The notes beneath the pieces are model-generated. The model did no database searches. It worked only from the letters and a program-made list of their open reading frames with translations, and had not been told where the DNA came from. Positions 43,264 through 64,000 of a stretch of DNA of 64,000 bases are shown piece by piece (positions within the stretch are counted from its first letter, which is position 1; each line of letters begins with the position of its first letter). Both the position numbers and the translations under genes were made by a program. Origin of the DNA: an uncultured Acidobacteriota bacterium (GTDB taxonomy: Bacteria; Acidobacteriota; Thermoanaerobaculia; Gp7-AA8); assembly GCA_963741955.1 (NCBI GenBank), contig CAVUKB010000010.1:480001-544000 (forward strand), given 5' to 3'.

Positions 43264-43372
43264 CACTCTCCTCACCCGTGACGGTATCGCTGTTGCACAG
43301 TATGAGCCCGCCGGCGTGCACCGGACATCCGAACTCTCTGCGCGAGCCGGCAGAAAGACAGGAGGACGATTC

Positions 43373-43858
43373 ATGATACCGAAAGTAGTGAAGAGTATGG
43401 GAATCCTGGTCGGTCTCGTCGCCCTCGCGACGGTGGGATGCAAGTCATCCGGCACCGCGGTGACCCAGCGGGGTCAGGTGATGAAGATCTCGATCGATGG
43501 CCCATCCTCGATGGCCGAAGGAGAGACATCCGACATCCGGGTGAACGTAGCGAATTACGGCGTGAACAAACTCTCCAACGTGGTGTATCAGGTGGAAGTT
43601 CCGCCGCGGCTGGTGGTGCTGGAAGAGAATCACGGTGCAGGGATGAACCTGACTGCAGCGATCACCCCGGACGGCTCGAAACTGTACGCGTACCGGATCG
43701 GAGGCCTCAATCCGGGAGAGAAGTCGGAAGCGCGTTTCAAAGTTCGCGCATCGTTCGGCTCGTTCGACACGAGCGGTGACATCAAAGTCACCGCCTGGCA
43801 GGAGGACCTTCCGAACAACAAGCTGATCGAAACGCACGCCATCAAACTCAAGAGTTGA
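43373..43858 (+). CDS. Lipoprotein with an Ig-like (DUF11-like) domain
   Basis: Lipobox TVGC; beta-rich, VANYG, GGLNPGEK; RBS AGGAGG. Confidence 0.75.
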   Translation: MIPKVVKSMGILVGLVALATVGCKSSGTAVTQRGQVMKISIDGPSSMAEGETSDIRVNVANYGVNKLSNVVYQVEVPPRLVVLEENHGAGMNLTAAITPDGSKLYAYRIGGLNPGEKSEARFKVRASFGSFDTSGDIKVTAWQEDLPNNKLIETHAIKLKS

Positions 43859-43867
43859 CCCTTATTT

Positions 43868-43991
43868 TGAGCGGTGAGCGGTGAGCGGTGAGCGCAGAAT
43901 GTTCTCGAGCCTGGTGTAGAAACAGAAGAGTCTTACGCTCGTCGCTCGTCGCTCGTCGCTCGTCGCTCGTCGCTCGTCGCTCGTCGCTCGC
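43868..43991. repeat. Opposed heptamer arrays (TGAGCGG x3 / CGCTCGT x7)
   Basis: Arrays at 43868-43894 and 43936-43991 share the complementary GAGCG/CGCTC core. Confidence 0.88.
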
Positions 43992-44023: not shown

Positions 44024-44776
44024 ATGGAATTGAAGCAGGAACAGAACAAGATCAAGATCCCCGGGAAACCTCGCGAGACGATGGAGGACCGGCATCTCCT
44101 CGACCGTCCCACTCTAGCCGCAACCCTGCAGAGCGACTCGTGGCGTGTGCTGCGGATCACCAGCGAGTTCGTGACGGGATTCGACCAGCTCTCGGATATC
44201 TATCCTGCAGTCTCGATCTTCGGCTCGGCGCGGACGCTCCCCGACAACCCCTACTACGAGAGGTGCGTCGCCACCGCAGAATGCCTCGGCCGTGCCGGCT
44301 TCGCCATCATCAGCGGCGGAGGACCGGGGATGATGGAAGCGGCGAACCGCGGCGCGCGCCAGGCGGGCGCACTCTCAGTCGGCTGCAACATCGAGCTGCC
44401 GTTCGAGCAGCAGGTGAATCCGTACGTCGACAAAGCACTGACGTTCCGCTATTTCTTCGTCCGCAAGACGATGTTCGTGAAGTACTCCGAGGCGTTCATC
44501 GCGTTTCCGGGGGGCTTCGGAACTCTCGACGAGCTGTTCGACGCGCTCACATTGATCCAGACCCAGAAGATCTCGGATTTTCCGGTGATCCTCTTCGGCG
44601 TCGATTACTGGAGTGGATTGATCGGGTGGCTTCGCGACACGGTGCTCGCTGCAGGAAACATCGTCAGCCAGGACGTCGACAGCATTCACGTTGTGGACGA
44701 CCCGGACGAGGTGGCGAATATCGTCTCCGATTACCACCGGCAGGCACTGGCGAACAACGGGAAGAGCTCACGCTGA
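44024..44776 (+). CDS. LOG-family (TIGR00730-like) nucleotide phosphoribohydrolase
   Basis: VSIFGSAR, SGGGPGMMEAANRG, FFVRKTMF, PGGFGTLDE. Confidence 0.93.
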   Translation: MELKQEQNKIKIPGKPRETMEDRHLLDRPTLAATLQSDSWRVLRITSEFVTGFDQLSDIYPAVSIFGSARTLPDNPYYERCVATAECLGRAGFAIISGGGPGMMEAANRGARQAGALSVGCNIELPFEQQVNPYVDKALTFRYFFVRKTMFVKYSEAFIAFPGGFGTLDELFDALTLIQTQKISDFPVILFGVDYWSGLIGWLRDTVLAAGNIVSQDVDSIHVVDDPDEVANIVSDYHRQALANNGKSSR

Positions 44777-47254
44777 GCCGGGCTCACCGCCCCTCGCATT
44801 TTCCAGACGCCTGCGGAGCGGGAACGCGATGGTCGCCAGCACCGCCGCAGCCGCGAAGAATGGCGCGGGAACGATTCCCCCCGTGAGCGCTGCGAGGGAG
44901 AGCGCGATCACGTTGAAGATGATCGCCAGCCGGATCCGCTTCCGGATCGAGCCGATCATCGCACGGGCGGTCTCGCAGATCTCGGCGAGGATTCCCGGCT
45001 CTTCGCCGGTGATGATCATGTCCGCGTCGAGATTCGATGCCGCCGGGCCGAATGCGATCCCGAGATCGGTCGCAGCGAGAAACTGAAGATCTCGAGGATC
45101 GGCGCTGACGCCGGCAACCGGCGACTCGCGCCGGAGAGACGTCGCGATCTCGATCCGTCGTCCGGACGATGCGGCGGCGGTGAAGGCGGCGATCCCTGCT
45201 GCGGATGCAATCGCACCCGCAGTCGCCACGTCTTCACCGGAGAGAATACGCGGTTCGAATCCGAGGGCTTCGATCCGGTGCATCGCGGCGGGAGCCGCGG
45301 GACGGGCGGCGTCCGACACGACGATCAGCCCCGACAGCTGCTGCTCGATGGCGATGCCGATCGTGTTCTTCCCCGCTGCCGTGAAGCCGGCGAGCTCTTC
45401 GGAGATTCCGCTGACGTCGATCCCCTCGGCGGCGAGAAATTCAATCCGGCCGACCCGCACCGTCCGTCCGTCGACCACCGAACGCACTCCTTTTCCTTCG
45501 CTGCCGTGGTAATCCCGGCGCTCGGCACCCGCCGCGACCGCGTTCCCTCGTGACGCGATCGCTCGCGCGACCGGATGATCGGCATTCTCTGCCGCAGCGG
45601 AAGCGACGCGGAGAAGCTCGCTCTGGCTGATGCCGCCGAGAAGCACGTACTCGGTGACGCGAGGATTCCCTCCCGTGATCACGCCACGCGGGCGCAGCAG
45701 GAGAGCCTGGACGCGACCGAGCACGTCGTAGCAGCTCGCGCTGCGCGCGTACACTCCGATCTCCGTCCCACGGCGGAGTGCCGCGTCGTGAAATGCTGCC
45801 GAAACGAGTGAGACTGCACGCGGCGCCACCGCGACGAGGACCGCGGCGAACGCGGCGATGGCATACGACCACGGATGCGCCGGTGTGAGGATCGCCCATC
45901 CGGCAAGTGCAGCCGGCGCCAGCAGCGCCGTTGCCACCATCAACGCACGCGACGCCTTCATCTCCGCCGGGCCGACGGGGCGTGAGAGCACCGCCGCCAT
46001 TCGTTTGTGCATCGTCTCGTTCGCCGCCGCCGTAACGCGTACTCGCAGTGTTCCTTCGACGATCCGGCAACCGGAGAAGAGCGGGTCACCGGTCGACTTC
46101 GAGACGGCGTTCGGCTCGCCGGCCGTCATCTCTTCGACACGCGCTTCCCCCTCCACCACCGTCCCGTCGATCCACGCCTGGTCACCTTTGCGCAGCTCGA
46201 CGACGTCGTCCGTCGAGATCTCCGCAGCGGGAACCTCGACGACACGATCTCCTTTCACCAGGCGCGTCTCGCCGCCGTCGAGCTTCGCGAACCGATTGCT
46301 CCAGGAAGCTGCGCGCTGCCGCGCCGTCGTGTCGGCCCTCACTGCAATCAGCCACACCAGTACCAGCCACGAAGCGGTGACATAGTGCAGCCCGGTCACG
46401 ACTCCCGCGTCTGGCGCGAGGAGCGAAACGAAGGTTTGGGCCATCGAGGCCAGCAGCAGAGTCGCAACCGACACGGTGTACAGCAATCCGGCGGAGATCC
46501 GCCCTCTCCGCAGTGACGCCCATCCTACGATCGCAGCGTCCTTCATCAGCCATCCGAGGAGGAGAGCGATCGCGATCAGGGCGCCGCCCGCGACTCCCGC
46601 GCGAAGAAGTCCGAGCGAAGGCCAGGACGAGAGTGCCGCCGTTCGGATCCAGGCGTATGCGGCTCCGGAATCGCCGAATGTCGCGAGCGACACTTCGAGC
46701 AGAGTCGCACCGCCGGCTGCGAGGAACGCGAGGATGATCGCGCCCCACCCGATTCCGCTCCGGACTTTCTGTTCTTTGTCGACTGCGGCGTAGCCCGATC
46801 TCCGGATTGCGGCGTGAATCGCCTGGATGTCGGTCTGAACCGGATCGTACTCGACGAGGATCTCGTCGCGGAGAAGGTCGATCTCGACCGCGCTGACACC
46901 GTGGAGCGATTCGATCGACCGCCGGATGGAAAGAGCGTCGGGAGCGTCGAAGGAGACGCCGCGGAGGTGAAGGCGAGTCCTTGATCGGCCGGGATCGAAT
47001 CCGGCCGATTCGATCAGCGGCAGGAGTGACGGGAGGGCTTTTTCATCGTCCAGAGAAAGGGTCGCCTGCTGCTGGAAGAGGCTGACCCGGATGGACCGGA
47101 CTCCCGGTTCGCTCCCCAGTCTCGTCTCGAGCCGGCGCGCGCAGCACTGGCAATCGAGGCCTGGAAGCGAGAGGGTGAGCGTGACGGCCTTGGCTCCGGA
47201 GTCGTTCGCTCGAGGATCAGTCTGCCTGTGCATGTCAGCGCTGGTGCTTCGCAT
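44768..47254 (-). CDS. Heavy-metal P1B-type ATPase homolog with degenerate catalytic motifs
   Basis: HMA GLDCQCC, TM/A/N/P domain order, HP and GKGV retained; DKTGT, CPC and GDGxND absent; start 47254 or 47233. Confidence 0.8.
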   Translation of the reverse strand: MRSTSADMHRQTDPRANDSGAKAVTLTLSLPGLDCQCCARRLETRLGSEPGVRSIRVSLFQQQATLSLDDEKALPSLLPLIESAGFDPGRSRTRLHLRGVSFDAPDALSIRRSIESLHGVSAVEIDLLRDEILVEYDPVQTDIQAIHAAIRRSGYAAVDKEQKVRSGIGWGAIILAFLAAGGATLLEVSLATFGDSGAAYAWIRTAALSSWPSLGLLRAGVAGGALIAIALLLGWLMKDAAIVGWASLRRGRISAGLLYTVSVATLLLASMAQTFVSLLAPDAGVVTGLHYVTASWLVLVWLIAVRADTTARQRAASWSNRFAKLDGGETRLVKGDRVVEVPAAEISTDDVVELRKGDQAWIDGTVVEGEARVEEMTAGEPNAVSKSTGDPLFSGCRIVEGTLRVRVTAAANETMHKRMAAVLSRPVGPAEMKASRALMVATALLAPAALAGWAILTPAHPWSYAIAAFAAVLVAVAPRAVSLVSAAFHDAALRRGTEIGVYARSASCYDVLGRVQALLLRPRGVITGGNPRVTEYVLLGGISQSELLRVASAAAENADHPVARAIASRGNAVAAGAERRDYHGSEGKGVRSVVDGRTVRVGRIEFLAAEGIDVSGISEELAGFTAAGKNTIGIAIEQQLSGLIVVSDAARPAAPAAMHRIEALGFEPRILSGEDVATAGAIASAAGIAAFTAAASSGRRIEIATSLRRESPVAGVSADPRDLQFLAATDLGIAFGPAASNLDADMIITGEEPGILAEICETARAMIGSIRKRIRLAIIFNVIALSLAALTGGIVPAPFFAAAAVLATIAFPLRRRLENARGGEPGSA

Positions 47255-47346
47255 TCAACCACGACCTGATGTTATTTGTGGCATTTGTCTAGCACCGTTT
47301 TCTCCAGAGCACGAAGTCGTGTGCCCGGCCGTGGAGGGAGGATTAA

Positions 47347-47559
47347 ATGCGAATAGAAGAGACAAATCAAATTCTGAAAGATGCGAAGCAGCGGGGACAT
47401 TCCGTCCACGAGCAGAAGGGAACGGGAGCGCGGTTTTCCGAGGCGCTCCACAACCGTGGCGTGCAATCGGCTCTGACGGTGGCAGGTGTCGCTGCGGTGG
47501 TCGGACTCGGAAGCTGGTTGGCGCGATCGCGACGACCGCGACCCTGGTACGAGATCTGA
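47347..47559 (+). CDS. Small protein with a C-terminal membrane anchor
   Basis: RBS GGAGG; 70 aa ending ALTVAGVAAVVGLGSWLARSRR. Confidence 0.6.
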   Translation: MRIEETNQILKDAKQRGHSVHEQKGTGARFSEALHNRGVQSALTVAGVAAVVGLGSWLARSRRPRPWYEI

Positions 47560-47593: not shown

Positions 47594-48904
47594 TCATGGC
47601 TCTCCGCTCCTCCTGGTGACCAGAACCCACCTCACTCTGTACCGCTCACCTTCGAGGACTTCGAGGGTCAGATCGCCGAGGTCGACCCGATCCCCGGGGG
47701 AGACCTCGCGTCCCAGTGTGGCCGCGACATATCCACCGATCGTTTCTTCGGGAGGCTCGCCGACGTCGATCTTGAGCCGGTCCGCCAGATCTTCGATCAG
47801 GTAGTCGCCGCGGATCCGGTAGCGGCCCTCGCCGAGACGCTCGACCTCGAGCCTCTCACGATCGAATTCGTCCTGAATCTGCCCGAAGAGCTCTTCGGTG
47901 ATGTTCTCCATCGAAACGATGCCGGATGCACCGCCATACTCGTCGAGGATCACCGCGAGATGGGTCCGGTGGTCGAGGAACTGGTGGAGGAGGTTCTCGA
48001 CCGTGGTGTTCTCCGGAACGAAGAGCGCCTCCCTCTTGAGGTCCATCAGCGTGCGACCCGGACCTTTGAGCTGGGCAAGAAAGAGGTCCTTCACGTGGAT
48101 GATCCCGACGACGTGATCGAGGTCGCCGTTGCAGAGTGGATAGCGGGTATGTCCGGTTTTGAGAATGGTGTCGAGATTCTCTTCGATGCTTCGGGTGACC
48201 GAGAGTATCACCACGTCCGTCCGCGGAACCATGATCTGACGCGCCGTCCGTCGCGAGAACTGGAAGACGCCTTCAATGATCTCGAGGTTCGGCTCGGAGA
48301 GGATTCCCGCCTGTTCCGAATGGGCCAGGATCAGGCGCAGCTCTTCCTGCGAATGAGCCACTTCGGCCTCACTTGCCGGGCGGATCCCGATCGTTCGGAG
48401 GACGAGATTGGAGAAACTGTTCAGGACGAAGATCGCGGGATACATCACGACGTAGAAGGCGTGGAGTGGGTGAGCGATCCAGAGGGCGGAGCTCACTGGT
48501 TTCTGGATTGCGAGGGACTTCGGTGCGAGCTCGCCGAACACGATATGGAGCACGGTGATGATCAGGAACGCGACTGACGCTGCGATGGAGTGAGCGACCG
48601 GGACGGCGAACGCTCCGAGCCGGACGAACCACGGCACGAGGAGGGAGGCGAACGCCGGTTCACCGATCCAGCCGAGAGCCAGGGATGCGAGCGTGATTCC
48701 GAGCTGGGTGGCCGAGAGATAGACATCCAGACGGCGGGTCAGGCGGAGTGCCATCTTCGCACGGGGGTCGTTCTTCGCCGCGAGCTCTGTGAGCTGCGTC
48801 GGCCGAACCTTCACGATCGCGAATTCGGCGGCGACGAAATAACCGTTGGCCAGGACGAAGAAAAAGGCCAGGACGAGATACCAGGCGCTCATTGGAGAGG
48901 CCAT
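47594..48904 (-). CDS. CNNM/CBS/CorC (TlyC-like) membrane protein
   Basis: NGYFVAAEFA, LSATQLGITLASLALGWIGEP, GELAPK, IMVPR, DEYGG. Confidence 0.94.
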   Translation of the reverse strand: MASPMSAWYLVLAFFFVLANGYFVAAEFAIVKVRPTQLTELAAKNDPRAKMALRLTRRLDVYLSATQLGITLASLALGWIGEPAFASLLVPWFVRLGAFAVPVAHSIAASVAFLIITVLHIVFGELAPKSLAIQKPVSSALWIAHPLHAFYVVMYPAIFVLNSFSNLVLRTIGIRPASEAEVAHSQEELRLILAHSEQAGILSEPNLEIIEGVFQFSRRTARQIMVPRTDVVILSVTRSIEENLDTILKTGHTRYPLCNGDLDHVVGIIHVKDLFLAQLKGPGRTLMDLKREALFVPENTTVENLLHQFLDHRTHLAVILDEYGGASGIVSMENITEELFGQIQDEFDRERLEVERLGEGRYRIRGDYLIEDLADRLKIDVGEPPEETIGGYVAATLGREVSPGDRVDLGDLTLEVLEGERYRVRWVLVTRRSGEP

Positions 48905-56869: not shown

Positions 56870-57428
56870 TGACCACCTCGACCCCGATCACCAGCTGTGC
56901 TGCGCGCACGCGCTGCGCGAACTGCAAGCCGTTACCGACACCGCCCCGACCGGGCACTGGTGCTGGGCCACCCAAGCCGCCGACGCCCTCGCCGCGATCC
57001 AGAAGCTGATCGCCGACGCCCGCGCCGCGACCGCCGACGTCGACCCCGCCGCGCTGGCCGCGCAGATCCAGCACTACCGCTGCGCCGCACAGATCGGCGC
57101 CAACCAGAACGCCGCCCGCACCGACAAGCTGATGAAGAAACACCACGCGCTGGCCCGCCGGCTGCTCGACCGCCAAGACCTGACTACCTGCGCTTCACCA
57201 AAGACTGGCGAATACCGCCGGACAACAACGGCTCCGAACGCGACATCCGGATGATCAAACTCCGGCAGAAGGTATCCGGCTGCCTACGCACCCTCACCGG
57301 CGCGAAGCAATTCTGCGCGATCCGCAGCTACCTATCCACCGCCGCCAAACACGGCCATACCTCATTCGACGCACTCGTCACGCTCGCCGAAGGTCAAGCG
57401 TGGATGCCGGCATGACCTGACCAGTTAC
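56870..57428 (+). mobile_element. IS66-family transposase, 3' half only, frameshifted, with right end
   Basis: HQLCCAHALRELQAV; frameshift at ~57180; YLRFT..PPDNNGSERDIRMIKLRQKVSG; ends CTGACCAGTTAC (GTAA-type terminus). Confidence 0.85.
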
Positions 57429-57463
57429 TTCCGACTATCGACGAAGGCGAAATACGACGACCC

Positions 57464-58009
57464 TGTGGGGCTCAATAACCTCGTCTCGGTCTTCTCGGAG
57501 CGTTCGGCATGATCATTTGGTGTTGTTGTCGATGGTGTATGCCGTTGTGCGGGCGGTGCTTGGCCTGGTCGCCGTTCGGGGTCGTAGTCGTGCGGTCAAG
57601 GATGTCGAACTGCTGGTGTTGCGGCATGAGGTAGCGGTGTTGCCTCGCCAGATCAGTCGTCCGCGATTGGAGCCGACAGATCGAGTGCTGCTGGCGGCAC
57701 TGTCGCGGCTGCTGCCTCGGCAGTCGTGGTCGAGCCGGATCGTCAGCCCGGCAACATTGGTGGGTTGGCATGGCGAACTGGTCGCGCGGCGGTGGACGTA
57801 TCCGAGAGTTCACGCCTCGGCAGGTGGTCGACGCCCGATCGCAGTTGTGATCCGGACGTTGGTCGCGGCTTGCGCGAGAGAATCCGACGTGGGGTCATCG
57901 CCGGATCCATGGCGAGCCGATCGGGCTCGGTTACCGTGTCGCGCCCTCGACGGTATGGAACATCCTGCGCCGGGCCGGTCTTGACCCAGCGCCTCGACGA
58001 ACGGGATCT
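57464..58009 (+). mobile_element. Left portion of an integrase-core (IS481/IS3-like) actinobacterial-type IS, degenerate
   Basis: Left end TGTGGGGCTCAATAACC; KDVELLVLRHEVAVL..RPRL..DRVLLAALSRLLPR..PATL.GWH; frameshifted and cut by the next element. Confidence 0.75.
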
Positions 58010-59186
58010 TGTGGGGCTCAAGAACCTCGGTGTGGGCGTCTTGGCGGGGGTCGGCGTGATCATTCGAGTGTTCTTGTCCGTCGTGTGCTTGGCCCTGCGG
58101 ACGCTGCTTGGCCTTCTGCTGATACGACGCCGCGACCGGATGGTGAACGACGTCGAGCTGCTAGTGCTGCGGCAGGAGGTAGCGGTGCTGCGTCGCCAAG
58201 TCACTCGTCCGCGGTTGGAGCCGAAAGATCGGTTGGTGTTGGCGGCGCTGGCTCGTCTGCTCCCGCGGCAGCTGCGGAGGACCCGGATTGTCGCGCCGGC
58301 GACACCGCTGCGGTGGCATCGCGGACTCGTTGCTCGCGCTGGACGTACCCGAGGAGAACAGCTGCGGTCGGCGGTCGACCACGCACCTGCGACGTTATCC
58401 GGGGCCTGGTGGTTCGGCTTGCACGGGAGAACCCGACCTGGGGTCACCGCCGCATCCACGGCGAGCTGGTCGGGCTCGGCTACCGGGTGGCCCGTGCGAC
58501 GGTGTGGAACATCCTCCATGAGGCAGGGCTGGATCCGGCGCCGCGACGGTCAGGGCCGACATGGCGGGAGTTTTGCCGCGCGCAAGCCCAGACGATGCTG
58601 GCGTGCGACTTCTTCACCGTCGACTCTGTGCTGCTGCCGAATCTACGTGTTCGTGGTGCTCGAGGTCGGCTCGCGCCGCGTCCACATCCTCGGGGTCACC
58701 AGGCATCCGACGGGTGACTGGTGACCTAGCAGGCACGCAACTTCCTCATGTCGCTGGGGGAGCGGACCGACGCCTTCCGGTTCCTGATCCGCGACCGCGA
58801 TACCAGGTTTACTGCCAGCTTCGACGCGGTGTTCGCCGGCGCACGCATCGCGGTCCTGCGCAGCCCACCGCGAGCTGCGAAGGCGAACGCCTCCGCCGAA
58901 CGGTGGGTCAGCCCCATCCGCCGCGACTGCCTGGACCGGATGCTGATCTTCCACCAGCTACAGCTTCTGCGTGTGCTGGCCCAATACGAGACGCACGACA
59001 CCAGCCATCGACCGCACCGAGCCCCACTAGTGGCCGCTGATCGCCGCCGCCGTCGGCGTTTCTGATCGAGGCGGCAGCACCGCGGTTCGGCGAACCGAGG
59101 TGCTCGGCGGCCTGAGCAACGAATACCGCCACGCCGCATGACCCCGGTCGCCCACATTGACAGCACTGAGGTTCTTGAGCCCCACA
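58010..59186 (+). mobile_element. 1177-bp integrase-core IS (IS481/IS3-like) with a pseudogenised transposase
   Basis: 19-bp perfect terminal inverted repeats TGTGGGGCTCAAGAACCTC; fragments LARENPTWGHRRIHGEL, ACDFFTVD, FLIRDRDTRF, AERWV spread across frames. Confidence 0.88.
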
Positions 59187-59202
59187 AGCCCATTTCGCCG
59201 GC

Positions 59203-59674
59203 CTAGGCACGCAGCGGAACCTGGCTGCCTTCTGGTGGCGTGCCGTAGGAGGCCCAGAGGCTGTTCAGCGACATCTGGTAGTAGAGGGAGTGCAGTCCGA
59301 GAATGAAGGCAAGGATCAGTCCGATCCACGGGTTGCATTGATCCAGTGATGATCCCGCAGCGGCTTGTGCCCGCCGGATCTGCGTCGCCTGTCTTCCACG
59401 CTGAGACGTATGGCGGAACCAGGATGATGGCTCCGGGAAAGAGGGCGAGAACTGCGACGCCAGGAGAGACCTCGATGCGCTGGTCGATGTCCCGGACCTC
59501 CCTGTTGATCTTGTACCACCACACAAGGTGATAGATGCCAAGTGTGATAAGCGGCCATACGAGCCATACCAGGAAGGGATTGCGGTGTTTACCGATCAAG
59601 CCCACTCCACCAGAGCCCGGCGGAGTGGGTGGCCCTCCCGGCGGTGTCGGCGGATAAGCCGGTGGCGTCGACAT
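59203..59674 (-). pseudogene. DUF4234-like membrane protein, copy 1, frameshifted
   Basis: Pro-rich N-terminus, GKHRNP..VWLVWPLITLGIYHLVWWYKINREV; frame changes after KTGD. Confidence 0.7.
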
Positions 59675-59806
59675 CTATCGTTTCCCCCATGCCTGAGTGA
59701 ACCGTCCCGGATTTCGCGCCGTCTTTGTTGGCGGCACCGGACGGTGAGCCGGTCTGTTGAGCGTAGTAGGCCTGCTCGACACACCACACCCGAGGAGTTC
59801 GAGAGC

Positions 59807-60275
59807 CTAGGCACGCAGCGGAACCTAGCTGCCTTCTGGTGGCGTGCCGTAGGAGGCCCAGAGGCTGTTCAGCGACATCTGGTAGTAGAGGGAGTGCAGT
59901 CAGAGAATGAAGGCCAGGATCAGTCCGATCCACGGGTTGCATTGATCCGGTGATCCCGCAGCGGCTTGAGCCCGCCGGATGCGATCGCCTGTCTTCCACG
60001 CTGAGATGTAGGGCGGAACCAGGATGATGGCTCCGGGAAAGAAGGGCAAGAACTGCGACGCCAGGAGAGACCTCGATGCGCTGGTCGAAGTCCCGGACCT
60101 CCCTGTTGATCTTGTACCACCACACAAGGTGATAGATGCCAAGTGTGATGAGCGGCCATACGAGCCATACCAGGAAGGGATTGCGGTGTTTACCGATCAA
60201 GCCCACTCCACCAGAGCCCGGCGGAGTGGGTGGCCCTCCCGGCGGTGTCGGTGGATGAGCCGGTGGCGTCGACAT
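59807..60275 (-). pseudogene. DUF4234-like membrane protein, copy 2, frameshifted
   Basis: Near-identical to copy 1; frameshift after VAVLAL. Confidence 0.7.
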
Positions 60276-60298
60276 CTATCGTTTCCCCCATGCCTGAG

Positions 60299-60580
60299 TG
60301 AACCGCCCGGATTTCGCGCCGTCTTCTTGTTGGCGGCACCGGACGGTGAGCCGGTCTGTTGAGCGTAGTAGGCCTGTTCGAACTCCTCGGGTGTGGTGTG
60401 TCGAGCAGGCTGTGCAGTCGCTGGTTGTCCAACCAGTCGACGTAGTTCGTCCGGGCTTCGACGTCGGCGAGGCTGCGCAGCGGGTCGGTGCGAAACGTGA
60501 TCGGGGAGCGACGGCCTCGCTCTTGAACGGTCCGATTAGCGACTCGGCGACGGCGTTGTCCCATGTCGTCGACTACTCCT
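60299..60580 (-). mobile_element. IS3-family (IS6110-like) 3' remnant with right inverted repeat
   Basis: End TGAACCGCCCGGATTT (also at 59698); residual PLRSLADVE..VDW..NQRLHSLL and EQAYYAQQ. Confidence 0.7.
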
Positions 60581-60599
60581 GATCGCGATGGTGAGCCCC

Positions 60600-60700
60600 G
60601 CTCTGTTGGGGTGACGCATCCGTTGCATCCGTGACGCGTCGCCGCCGTGGTCGGCTTCGGTCCTGTTGTTCGGGTACCGCTCGGTCGTGTCACGAAGGCC
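60600..60700 (-). pseudogene. Short IS6-family transposase fragment
   Basis: TERYPNNRTEADHG...MQRMR resembles the IS6 motif Y.NNR.E.DH...R.MRG. Confidence 0.5.
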
Positions 60701-60743
60701 CGGCGAACCGACATTCCGCGCGGCCCGCTTACGCTGCCACGCC

Positions 60744-62267
60744 ATGGAGTCATTCCCTGCGACGGTCACGTTGGATGTGCATATCGGTGCTCGGTCACCT
60801 GCATGGTGGGATGAGACGGAAGCCCAGGGGGCCGCCGCCATGGGTGATCATGCGCCGCTGGGCTTGGCGGACCCGCGCAATCGCCCCGCGATAACGCTCG
60901 AACCGATCAATTGGGACGAGCTTGGTTTCACGCCGCGCTGGCTGGGTGACGACTCAAGCGAGGCGGTCACAGCGATCGAACCCAGCATCTTCGCCGGTCA
61001 CGGGGCGCAGGAGTGGGAGCGTTTCGTGGAAGCCTCGCAGCGTCGACGCGAACTGGCGCTGGCCATATCGACCGTTGGCAGTCCACACGAGCCCGAAATC
61101 CAGTCTGGCTTGGCCAGCGGCGCTGCCAGCGTGCAGCTGCCGGGCACACGGTTGAGCAGCATCGGCGGTCATCGAGTCTCCCTGGCCTCACGGCCTGAGG
61201 CGGCCGAAGACTTGGGCCCCGCAGATCGCGATCTCGCGCTGCGACTGGCGGACACGCGCCCCACCGATCTGCCGTGGTGGCGGTTGACGCTGTCCGGAGC
61301 AACGTTGGAGGCTGCCTTCCAGCAGTCCGAAGTCGTGCCTGCGCAGGGCACGTTGACACCGCTGCTCCGTGGCCGCGCCGGCGAGGTCGTGGCAGCAATC
61401 TGGACGTCAGACGACGGCACGATCCGTCACTACGTGCTGCCGTACCTGCCGAAGTACGAGCCGGTGCTGGATTGGCTCGCGCGGCGAGGCTTGCCTGTGT
61501 TCAATCCAGCGGCGGCGCGACGCACGCGCACGTCACTGGCCACCGAACCTAAGCTGCAGACACCTGCGGAAACAACCGCCCGCGCGCGACTCGCCGAGCT
61601 GGAGACCGACTACCAGCGGCAGCGCGCGATAATCGAGGCTGAGTTGACCGCTGCTGTGAGCGCCGCCGACGAGGTACGCGACCCACTGCTGTACGGCAAG
61701 GACAAAGTGCTCGAGGACGCGGTCTCACGTGTGCTGAGGGACGCCGGCATGGAAGCGCGCAGTGTCGACGAGATGCTTTCCGCGACGGTCAACGCGGATC
61801 TGTTCGCCACATGGGCAGGCAATTCCGTGCTCGTCGAGGTCAAGGGAACGTCGGGTAACGCCCCGGAGAATCTGGCTGAGCCCGCGCGCCGGCACCTCAC
61901 TACGTGGCCCCAGCTGCGCCCGGACCTAACAGTCCGCGGCGTGGTGTTGATCGTGAATCACCAGGCGCGTACCCAACCGCTCGACCGGACACCTGCGCCG
62001 TTCAACCGCCGCGAGTTCGTTGAGTCGCTTACCTTCCCGGTGCTCAGCACGAGGCAGCTGTACGACTGGTGGCGCCGCGGCGAACACGCCGAGATCCGAT
62101 CCGCGTTGTTCGGCGACGCGGCACGGTCGACTGCCAATCAAGTGCCGCGGCCTGATGCCCAGCAGCGCGCGGACGGCGCTGGTCGCTCTGCGCCGGGCGA
62201 CCGTGCGCCCGCCCGGCGCAAGGGCCTGCTGCGCCGGCTATTCGCTCGACGTGATGTCGCCAGGTAA
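60744..62267 (+). CDS. Hypothetical protein with a coiled coil and a C-terminal PD-(D/E)XK nuclease-like domain
   Basis: Uninterrupted ORF of ~500 aa; LEDAVSRVLRDAG...NADLFATWAGNSVLVEVKG; start uncertain (60744 or 60840). Confidence 0.65.
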   Translation: MESFPATVTLDVHIGARSPAWWDETEAQGAAAMGDHAPLGLADPRNRPAITLEPINWDELGFTPRWLGDDSSEAVTAIEPSIFAGHGAQEWERFVEASQRRRELALAISTVGSPHEPEIQSGLASGAASVQLPGTRLSSIGGHRVSLASRPEAAEDLGPADRDLALRLADTRPTDLPWWRLTLSGATLEAAFQQSEVVPAQGTLTPLLRGRAGEVVAAIWTSDDGTIRHYVLPYLPKYEPVLDWLARRGLPVFNPAAARRTRTSLATEPKLQTPAETTARARLAELETDYQRQRAIIEAELTAAVSAADEVRDPLLYGKDKVLEDAVSRVLRDAGMEARSVDEMLSATVNADLFATWAGNSVLVEVKGTSGNAPENLAEPARRHLTTWPQLRPDLTVRGVVLIVNHQARTQPLDRTPAPFNRREFVESLTFPVLSTRQLYDWWRRGEHAEIRSALFGDAARSTANQVPRPDAQQRADGAGRSAPGDRAPARRKGLLRRLFARRDVAR

Positions 62268-62599
62268 GAGATCGGGGGCAGCCAGCCGCCGCTGCCGTCA
62301 TACCAACGGCGAGGCACACAACCGCGGCCCTCGCGCCAGGCACCACCCACGTCCGCCATTTCGGCGGTTCCGCGGGCCTGGTGCACCGTGGGTGTAAACC
62401 GGCGCCGGCCGAACGCGGGTGGCGGGTTACCTCGCGGTTGATGACCGGCTCCGGCACCAGGACAGCGCTGGCTTGGTGCCACAGCGCGCGCCGGGCTCAC
62501 TTACGTGCGAACACGTCGTCCGCGGTCGGCCGGGTGCTATGCCTCCGCGAAGGCGACCTCCCGGCCCAACGCCCCGAGACAGCACCACCTGCGGTAACT

Positions 62600-62970
62600 C
62601 AGGCGGGTCGCTGCTCAACACCGCCCTGCTGACCACCGCGACCATCGATCATCTGGGCGGGCAGCATCCGCCGGGGCGTTTCGAGGTGCGACGGTTGCGG
62701 CCGAAGATCGTGCTGTCCACCAGCCCAGAGCAGCACGGCTTCGTCGACAACGACTGGATCGGTCACACCATCACGATCGGCGACCAAGTCCGCCTGCGGG
62801 TCACCAGACCCGCGGTGCGTGATGACCACCCTGCCGCGAGCAGACCTGCCAATAGACGCTGGCATCCTGCGCACCGCCGCCCAGCACAACCAGGTCAATC
62901 TCGGGGTCTACGCCGACGTCCTCGCCGGCGGACCATCCGCCGCAGTGACCCGGTCACCCTCGCCGGGTAA
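62600..62970 (+). pseudogene. MOSC-domain protein C-terminal fragment, frameshifted
   Basis: LLTTATIDHL..FEVRRLRPKIV..WIGHTITIG..LRVT / VMTTL..LGVYADV / TIRRSDPV. Confidence 0.7.
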
Positions 62971-63366
62971 GGCCGCAAGTCCTAGGAACCGTGACGAGGT
63001 CGTAGCGTAATCCGCAGATTCACCGGGGCCGACGAATGTCGGGAGGGAGTTGACGCTCGGGCACTGGGCCCTAATAGTGGTGCGCTCCCGCGTCCCGGTC
63101 TGGCGCGACTTGGGTGCATGAGCGGTGCCTGGTCGAGTGACGACGCTGTCGGAGACGTCCGGCCGAATGTCAACGGCTTGCCTCGACGGCTGATCCGGAT
63201 AACCTGAATCGGGCTTGCTGTGGCGGCTGCCGACTTACCGACTCGCAACCCATCGACAGATCGGCATCGAGAGATCGCCCGACTGGTGGGCAGCGGTCCC
63301 CGCGCAGCGCCAGTCAGCAGGAGGGTGTTATGCGGTCTACGCGGATGGTTGAGCTGGCACTAGGGG

Positions 63367-64000
63367 CAATGCCATTCAATTACGCGGCTGTGATTTCGAC
63401 GGTGGCTGGCCCGGGGTAGAGGATTTCTCGATGTTCCGGGCGTTTGATCGGGCGGTAGCAGGGGCCGTAGCGTTTGATGACGCGGGGGTAGGCGCGGTGT
63501 CGGCGTGGTCGGAGCGGGAATCGGAGGATCTCCTCGATGACGCGGCGGTGCCGGTCATTGGTCTGGTGAGGGGGGAAAGTCCGCGGAGCCATCGGCTTCG
63601 CGGCGGATGACCCGCAGAGATCGGATGAACGATAACCGGTCGGGGTCAATGTCGGCGTCGTGCGCGGCTTCGGTCATGAGGGTTCGGATGGCGTAGTGGG
63701 CGAGGAGTATTCCCCAGATTTCTTGGCGCACCATCTGCGGCGACTTCGACCGCAGCACTCGGGAATGTGCGATCTGGTGTGTCTCGATCTCATCCAGCGC
63801 GATCTCGAATTCCCAGCGTTGGTGGTACGCGGCGGCCAGGTCGGGTGCCAGCGCATCTTCCCAGTCGGTGATCGTCGTGATCAGCCGGTAGGGATCGCCG
63901 CTGTCACGGTCGGTGATCTGGTACTCGATGACGCGGACGAGGATCGCCTGGTTTGTCGCAGCCCGCCACCGTGCTTCGTTCAGCGTGGCTGGTGTGCTGA
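63367..64000 (-). mobile_element. IS4-family element (actinobacterial type); transposase C-terminus and right end, runs off the window
   Basis: VRVIEYQI, YRLITTI, YHQRWEFE, RVLRSKSPQMVRQEIWG, DPDRLSF (ORF ends at 63555); terminus CAATGCCATTCAATTA at 63367. Confidence 0.88.

Follow-up and report, generated by a model that had tools for sequence, protein, structure and literature searches.

A CopA-like P-type ATPase family without catalytic motifs is maintained by selection in deep-branching Thermoanaerobaculia and may receive or sense copper at the membrane

The window analysed here, a stretch of 64,000 nucleotides from an uncultured Acidobacteriota bacterium of the Thermoanaerobaculia (assembly GCA_963741955.1, contig CAVUKB010000010.1, positions 480,001 to 544,000), carries on its minus strand an open reading frame (ORF), P0001, encoding a CopA-like P1B-type ATPase in which the motifs required for pumping are replaced. 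We hold with high confidence that this motif-less protein, hereafter the pseudo-pump, is a dead pump kept by selection. By sequence definition its family is one of pseudoenzymes, with a predicted fold that is kept, catalytic residues that are gone and a signature of purifying selection. The family is real, conserved, narrow in range and apparently undescribed; the literature searched yielded no description of a motif-less P1B family or of a pseudo-P-type ATPase, with the proviso that sequences of this kind could figure in the supplementary tables of P1B surveys.

A preliminary description of this DNA had reported an unbroken 828-codon frame with a CopA-like layout, the replacement of DKTGT, CPC, LTGES, TGDN, GDGIND, YN and MxxSS, and the retention of CxxC, HP and GKG; all of this was borne out. 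The frame has no internal stop, Pfam recognised two HMA domains, E1-E2_ATPase and Hydrolase, and the AlphaFold2 model (predicted local distance difference test, pLDDT, 73.7; predicted template modelling score, pTM, 0.59; 10-row alignment) comprises the actuator (A), N, P and membrane domains of the P-type fold and lies nearest to ATP7B and CopA, the best Foldseek match (E 2.6e-36). All P1B models of NCBIfam remained below their cut-offs (TIGR01525, 202 vs. 346 bits; TIGR01511, 152 vs. 397), the generic TIGR01494 being the only NCBIfam model passed. In the alignment with A. fulgidus CopA, DKTG corresponds to RPRG, ACPC to VAPR and sGEP to tAGEP, the same columns pair TGDN with SGED, GDGIND with SADPRD and YN with FN, and the Met of MxxSS is absent. 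P0001 therefore lacks the Asp of DKTG(T) and the TGD and GDGxND motifs that characterise an active P-type ATPase, as well as the CPC in M4 (TMH6), the YN in M5 and the MxxSS in M6 that characterise the P1B-1 group. The phosphorylated Asp is described as invariant in P-type ATPases in PMC7558416 and PMC13460109, and CPC is given as the definition of the P1B-1 Cu(I)-ATPases in PMC5552934. What P0001 retains, besides GE, HP and GKG, is the N-terminal HMA domain with its CxxC (C35, C38), a P1B-1 feature. The GE of the actuator TGE(S) survives as AGEP in P0001 and is lost in its relative G001, and the remaining orthologs have no actuator domain.

Table 1. Features of the pseudo-pump and its surroundings; positions refer to the window unless a contig is named.
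Feature	Position	Strand	Remarks	Basis
Pseudo-CopA ORF P0001	44768..47254	-	828 aa	ORF list, Pfam, NCBIfam, CopA alignment, AlphaFold2, Foldseek
HMA1	46994..47176	-	ferredoxin-fold domain, residues 27-87	Pfam HMA
CxxC in HMA1	47141..47152	-	C35, C38; sole surviving canonical metal site	
HMA2	46787..46981	-	cysteine-free	Pfam
Membrane helices MA, MB, M1, M2	46280..46747	-	residues 170-325; L266 and W296 family-specific	
Actuator domain	45995..46270	-	TGES replaced by AGEP	
M3-M4	45761..45970	-	CPC replaced by APR at 45818-45826	
Phosphorylation site	45680..45694	-	DKTGT replaced by RPRGV	A. fulgidus CopA alignment
N domain	45314..45661	-	family signatures L538, L539, G541, R569, E620	
P domain, second part	44975..45313	-	TGD replaced by SGE, GDGxND by SADPRD	
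M5-M6	44789..44974	-	YN replaced by FN; no MxxSS	
LOG-family gene	44024..44776	+	convergent, downstream; 9-nt overlap with pseudo-pump end	
Small divergent gene	47347..47559	+	conserved across the family whether or not a pseudo-pump is present	no Pfam or NCBIfam match
CNNM-CBS-CorC (HlyC/CorC) gene	47594..48904	-	syntenic marker upstream of pseudo-pump	
copZ-like gene	contig C1 of genome G000, ~166395-166619		~74 aa, cytoplasmic; just before MBL-fold gene near murA	

A sequence error is an unlikely origin of the motif loss. The check for sequence errors raised in the preliminary description turned up 0 differences in two runs: one contig from run X1, which may be the source sample and hence is not independent, spans 44562-47437, and four short contigs of run X2, from a different sample of the same study, match the window, one of them across the codons changed from CPC to APR, while the R521 codon lies outside all four. 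The surrounding DNA has the host tetranucleotide signature (r 0.98-0.99), and the gene lies far ahead of a probable chimeric junction at about 56.9 kb.

An in-frame TGA stands immediately 5' of the P0001 ATG, and databases use an alternative start at Met8, which gives 821 aa. This TGA ends a nine-codon frame at 47255-47284 (minus strand) that may be chance or promoter sequence; a comparable short frame, in another reading frame, precedes the pseudo-pump of G030.

Protein searches returned relatives of P0001 at ≤34% identity only. The best genome match, G001, was likewise motif-less and syntenic, and weak split matches in further genomes turned out to be additional family members. A search with a 10-member profile found the family in 12 of the 127 genomes of the order sample, distributed over 10 genera of one bacterial family, all deep-branching Thermoanaerobaculia; ten of these 12 matches are such by construction, G113 and G024 being outside the profile. 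Eleven members (660-860 aa across the family) scored 581-909 bits, the frameshifted G024 304 and the best intact pump 290. Conserved neighbours, another proposed check, were evident in that every ortholog occupies the same chromosomal site, between aroA/hlyC and a block of LOG, lipoprotein, kinase and ompW genes. In non-carriers, none of 31 loci spanning this site holds a pseudo-pump (39 were fetched and 8 that did not span it were dropped). Since carriers form the deep branches of the neighbour-gene trees and 34 non-carriers a clade (support 100) nested among them, the pseudo-pump probably dates back to the ancestor of the bacterial family and has been lost at least twice since, with the root placed by one outgroup. 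The 11 aligned members formed a single clade in four trees (FastTree 1.0; Shimodaira-Hasegawa-like approximate likelihood ratio test 100), albeit on long branches, and the alternative of close homologs retaining DKTGT or CPC was not the case. Two sequences were left out of alignments and gene trees, namely G024, owing to its frameshift, and the N-terminal piece of G022, which lies on a separate contig. G042, G076, G116 and G117 contribute to tallies and background rows alone, and none of the claims depends on them.

Beyond the order, the family was hard to extend. Word-indexed searches with P0001, A1 and A4 as queries gave no additional member, indicating that such searches are insensitive here, and phmmer against 1.84 billion proteins listed 149 others, five of them without DKTG, two of which are family members. 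No further member appeared in the class (401 genomes) or phylum (401 genomes) samples, in which 2 candidates were scored per genome, and the five best phylum matches beyond the family were intact pumps. A metagenome scan with P0001 found no match, and one with P0181 brought up relatives at 37-49% from 80 loci, nearly all of them with intact motifs, its own locus not being among them. Three independent, partly degenerate CopAs without the catalytic Asp, P0268 (Nitrospinota, in an 11-member cluster) and the metagenomic P0181 and P0226, branch elsewhere in the tree than the P0001 family. P0181 had been considered as a relative of the family, which it joined in one tree, and was rejected when improved sampling moved it to the intact pumps (99.7). 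One row from outside the family still groups with it in a mixture-model tree; long-branch attraction may account for this, and we name no donor. The ESM Atlas holds look-alikes of the pseudo-pump in clusters of 550-660 aa without actuator, which are leads only.

The family bears the mark of purifying selection, which supports the proposal of the preliminary description that the gene is selected for a non-pumping role. The ratio of nonsynonymous to synonymous substitution rates (dN/dS), measured in within-genus pairs that do not include the window gene's own branch, which has no close relative, was 0.148 by NG86 for G111/G112 (741 codons, 0 gaps) and 0.171 for G026/G113 (693 codons, 0 gaps; YN00 0.10), not near 1; between-genus values (0.39-0.57) were saturated and not used. 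Compared with 0.02-0.15 in neighbouring genes, these values indicate that constraint on the pseudo-pump is relaxed but real. A decaying pseudogene or an assembly artefact would be in line with the between-genus identity of 18-37% (55-80% for most neighbours), with the loss of the gene in most of the bacterial family, with the piecemeal loss of domains and of the CupA partner described below, and with the frameshifts of G024. This explanation is, however, already largely refuted and in our view very improbable: besides the dN/dS values and the run contigs, the frame is open in 10 of 12 orthologs, G022 is split solely by contig ends, and G024 has frameshifts in hlyC, phnP and murA too, which indicates an assembly error. 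Of 1000 simulated neutral copies, 10 still had an open frame at 0.1 changes per site; at 0.25 the count was 0 of 1000.

The motif losses are shared throughout the family. Among the 11 aligned members, the DKTGT Asp, the first CPC Cys, the canonical N-domain Glu and the GDGxND Asn are kept in none, G001 having an Asp one column off the phosphorylation site and no KTGT. The YN Asn is kept in 1/11, with His in its place in 7/11, and the Met and Ser of MxxSS in 2/11 and 1/11. His and Pro of the HP motif are each present in 6/11, and several members have lost the GxG stretch, a patchiness that, with the missing Glu, argues against shared ATP binding and against the nucleotide sensor that had been suggested, at least as a family trait. 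An in-frame deletion has removed the actuator domain from 10 of 12 orthologs, leaving it in P0001 and G001 alone, with at least two changes on the tree; the catalytic cycle is impossible in those 10, and the domain is dispensable for the pseudo-pump. The HMA1 CxxC, by comparison, is kept in 10 of 12 orthologs: both Cys are found in 9/9 aligned rows having the HMA1 column and also in G024, while G022 reads SxSG and G025 has no such domain.

Compared with 12 intact pumps, the domains are conserved in an inverted order, with the N domain (between-genus identity 0.32 vs. 0.41) and HMA1 (0.26 vs. 0.32) best and the P domain and M3-M6 (0.23-0.26 vs. 0.60-0.67) worst, although relative domain conservation varies with the choice of intact pumps compared. 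Along the sequence, residues specific to the family are concentrated where the N domain begins and on two of its helices. These patterns bear on the possibility that the protein works as an ATP-independent metal channel or uniporter, for example in copper import, with a membrane core stuck open for want of the actuator gate. The helical core does persist (AlphaFold2 model; 5-7 hydrophobic segments per member in a simple scan), and the actuator deletions and the His at the YN position would suit a channel; yet the CPC Cys and MxxSS are all gone, the M5 His is missing in P0001, G001, G025 and G030, and M3-M6 belong to the segments that are most poorly conserved when set against working pumps, so that we consider a channel unlikely.

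We tentatively read the pseudo-pump as a Cu(I) receiver or sensor that is anchored in the membrane and supplied by the chaperone CopZ. We favour this reading over the alternatives, though with slightly more doubt than belief, and it is chosen since the protein keeps HMA1 and the N domain and tracks CopZ. Of the roles first suggested, metal sensor or scaffold fit best. In working A. fulgidus CopA, according to PMC7558416 (section 5.1.2), apo N-terminal sites bind the N domain, and a CopZ-loaded copper sensor is proposed. The putative CopZ considered here is a stand-alone HMA protein with CxxC and no signal peptide, CopZ-like by these features and below the cut-offs of the named CopZ models. Its gene, located ahead of a metallo-beta-lactamase (MBL)-fold gene at the murA-MBL site, is present in 9/9 carriers with CxxC, 0/2 carriers without CxxC and 0/40 assessable non-carriers, a tally from 55 loci from which 4 of 44 non-carriers with fewer than 140 upstream bases were dropped and G113, with the site unassembled, was excluded. 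In G022 both CxxC and copZ are lost and its sister G024 has both (node support 99.5); other HMA proteins inspected in G022, G025, G005 and G036 have signal-peptide-like N-termini. That copZ tracks the CxxC of the pseudo-pump is a strong lead, short of proof.

Several points weigh against the receiver reading, in addition to the dependence of the domain ranking on the pumps compared. The top nine genome-wide matches of a copZ profile are in the same nine genomes, but that profile was made from 5 of the 9 positives. Corrected for kinship, the link between copZ and CxxC comes down to 2 independent concordant pairs (3 when unsupported branches are counted; sign test for the two, p 0.5). G022 and G025 maintain a full-length frame without CxxC, and copper binding is therefore not the sole selected property. 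Zn, Hg or Ag can occupy CxxC sites as well, so that copper is assigned from ancestry. The 11 upstream regions of pseudo-pumps contained neither a CsoR-type nor a CueR-type operator, and copper induction is accordingly not indicated. Finally, this analysis found no output partner.

Two observations concern CopZ itself. The pseudo-pump as a substitute for CopZ was considered and rejected since carriers possess CopZ. In the window's genome (C1 ~166395-167440, L251) the copZ-like gene overlaps the start of the MBL-fold hydrolase, a pairing kept in nine genomes, so that the chaperone may serve the hydrolase as well.

Copper export in G000 appears to be served by other proteins. This genome, that of the window, encodes five P-type ATPases with DKTGT, including one YHS-type CopA, whose gene lies behind a csoR-like gene and a CsoR-type palindrome. 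Pfam assigns no HMA domain to this working CopA; within the genome, HMA matches are confined to the pseudo-pump and CopZ. Such a distribution would suit a regulatory or stabilising subunit that gives the YHS-type pump its missing HMA domains in trans, and the preliminary description had thought of a regulatory partner of an active pump. We nevertheless judge this improbable: the related working CopA clade persists where the pseudo-pump was lost, most of the 115 genomes without pseudo-pump retain intact P1B pumps, and the two genes are unlinked and not co-regulated, the CsoR-type operator being at copA only. No intact P1B was found in G113, which is 85% complete. An obligatory partnership is disfavoured by these data.

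Downstream of the pseudo-pump, 8 of 12 orthologs carry a gene for a CupA-like single-helix cupredoxin (PF13473), which is missing in the window's genome (no Cupredoxin_1 match there), G009, G024 and G025. The Cys..CxMxM motif of CupA is described in PMC5552934, which also notes rhizobial CupA homologs without it. These ligands are lost in 8/8 of the CupA-like proteins and present in intact control CupAs; the genes have dN/dS values of 0.07 and 0.24, pointing to selection. Intact copA-cupA operons occur in class-mates (G058, G151, G223, G190, G361, G175) and phylum-mates (G565, G626, G766), and the class-mate operon pumps are the intact pumps most similar to the pseudo-pump (26-27%), with the sister group left undecided by the trees. 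From these operons and similarities we infer descent of the pseudo-pump from a copA-cupA operon. In the predicted complex of the G111 pseudo-pump with its CupA, the score was 0.37 against 0.01 for the best control, which weakly supports an interaction; contacts agreed by at least 83% between runs and the partner pLDDT was at least 71. The mark for this score was reached by 116/157 solved complexes and 2/215 mismatches, and scores at the mark but ≤0.60 were those of 18 of the 157 solved complexes and both mismatches.

The degenerate CupA is central to another explanation, a metal-independent membrane scaffold whose fold would be a docking platform, mostly with ligand-less CupA, and whose CxxC would be an optional leftover. 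The two genomes that keep the gene without CxxC, the selected yet ligand-less CupA, the predicted complex and the family-specific N-domain residues, which suggest a binding surface, would all agree with it. Against this, the four genomes named above have no CupA gene, the retention of CxxC in 10 of 12 orthologs at ~23% background identity and the match with copZ are left unexplained, and the complex score may merely mirror likeness to the ancestral pair. We regard a scaffold as rather doubtful.

For the receiver or sensor, the following course may be envisaged. The ancestor would have been an ordinary copA-cupA export operon, export now being handled by a different YHS-type CopA, probably under CsoR control in G000. 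The old pump would have retained its regulatory half, with the contact between HMA1 and N domain that copper opens in working CopA. A dedicated cytoplasmic CopZ would load or unload HMA1 at the surviving CxxC, copper would be held at the membrane, and the shape of the protein would follow copper status, a change that a protein partner would register, perhaps the ligand-less CupA in genomes that have it. In this scheme copper binding, transfer from CopZ, the HMA1/N-domain latch and the output are all inferred. In its fullest form, it would make the pseudo-pumps the first family of pseudo-P-type ATPases, a pump-derived copper receptor in which loading of HMA1 by CopZ opens the HMA1/N-domain latch and signals through the dead CupA or another partner, and one of several independent dead-pump lineages in bacteria, together with P0268, P0181, P0226 and the ESM Atlas clusters; that this whole picture holds seems to us on the unlikely side.

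Among the neighbouring genes, HlyC/CorC was considered as a specific partner and rejected, as it occupies the site in non-carriers and is absent in G111/G112; in G009 (L052:5727-5840) only a 38-codon hlyC/corC remnant precedes the pseudo-pump. The small divergent gene has a conserved N-terminal motif and recurs in this position in ~24 genomes of the bacterial family. In G001, G111 and G112 conservation is limited to its first ~nine codons, immediately 5' of the pseudo-pump, and is lost in the remainder, a hint of a DNA or RNA element. A scan for sigma-70 promoters and terminators gave no match. On the other side, short tandem 7-mer repeats at ~43870-43990 separate the LOG gene from a DUF11-like gene for a probable lipoprotein (43328-43858, plus strand) that is conserved in 101 of the 127 order genomes and has no confident family assignment. 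The end of the window, from ~56870 to 64000 (contig C10 of G000 from ~536.9 kb), probably follows a chimeric junction: thiG is truncated on the 5' side, an identical copy of 970 bp of this sequence is present at C1:1577-2546, and past the junction the tetranucleotide correlation drops from 0.98 to ~0.80 and transposase-like fragments and a 580-bp duplication appear. Features of this tail may stem from another organism.

With P1B-1 CopA (A. fulgidus CopA, PDB 3j09/7r0g; ATP7B) the pseudo-pump shares domain order, fold, HMA CxxC and membrane core at 24-28% identity; unlike CopA, it lacks DKTGT, TGD, GDGxND, CPC, YN and MxxSS, retains of TGE(S) only the GE, has lost the actuator in most orthologs and has no CsoR-type operator. 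The gene order is that of copA-cupA operons such as that of S. pneumoniae CupA, a pump followed by a single-helix cupredoxin, but both genes of the present pair have lost their copper ligands. Pseudokinases and pseudophosphatases likewise kept a fold under purifying selection after catalysis was lost. Non-pumping copper roles have arisen from pumps before: a frameshift product of E. coli copA is reportedly a pump-derived chaperone. Plant PCH1, which derives from the P1B gene PAA1, is a further case in which the HMA domain was put to new use, as PMC4709454 describes. Both are short soluble pieces, whereas the pseudo-pump is a membrane protein of full family length with N and P domains. The PacL scaffolds of mycobacterial P1B effluxosomes are, according to PMC13460109, non-catalytic membrane partners in metal handling; they are small DUF1490 proteins encoded next to an active pump and not dead pumps.

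In P-type ATPases the catalytic Asp passes for invariant, and a selected, full-length family without the motifs departs from this. It is also a warning that annotation based on hidden Markov models overcounts copper pumps; if several dead-pump lineages do exist, annotation would mask them as pumps or hypothetical proteins. As a natural experiment, the family separates the pumping half of CopA from the regulatory half, comprising HMA, N domain and CopZ. What the N-terminal metal-binding domains do is a matter of continuing debate according to a review (PMC7558416), and a protein with the regulatory half alone would make this question testable free of transport.

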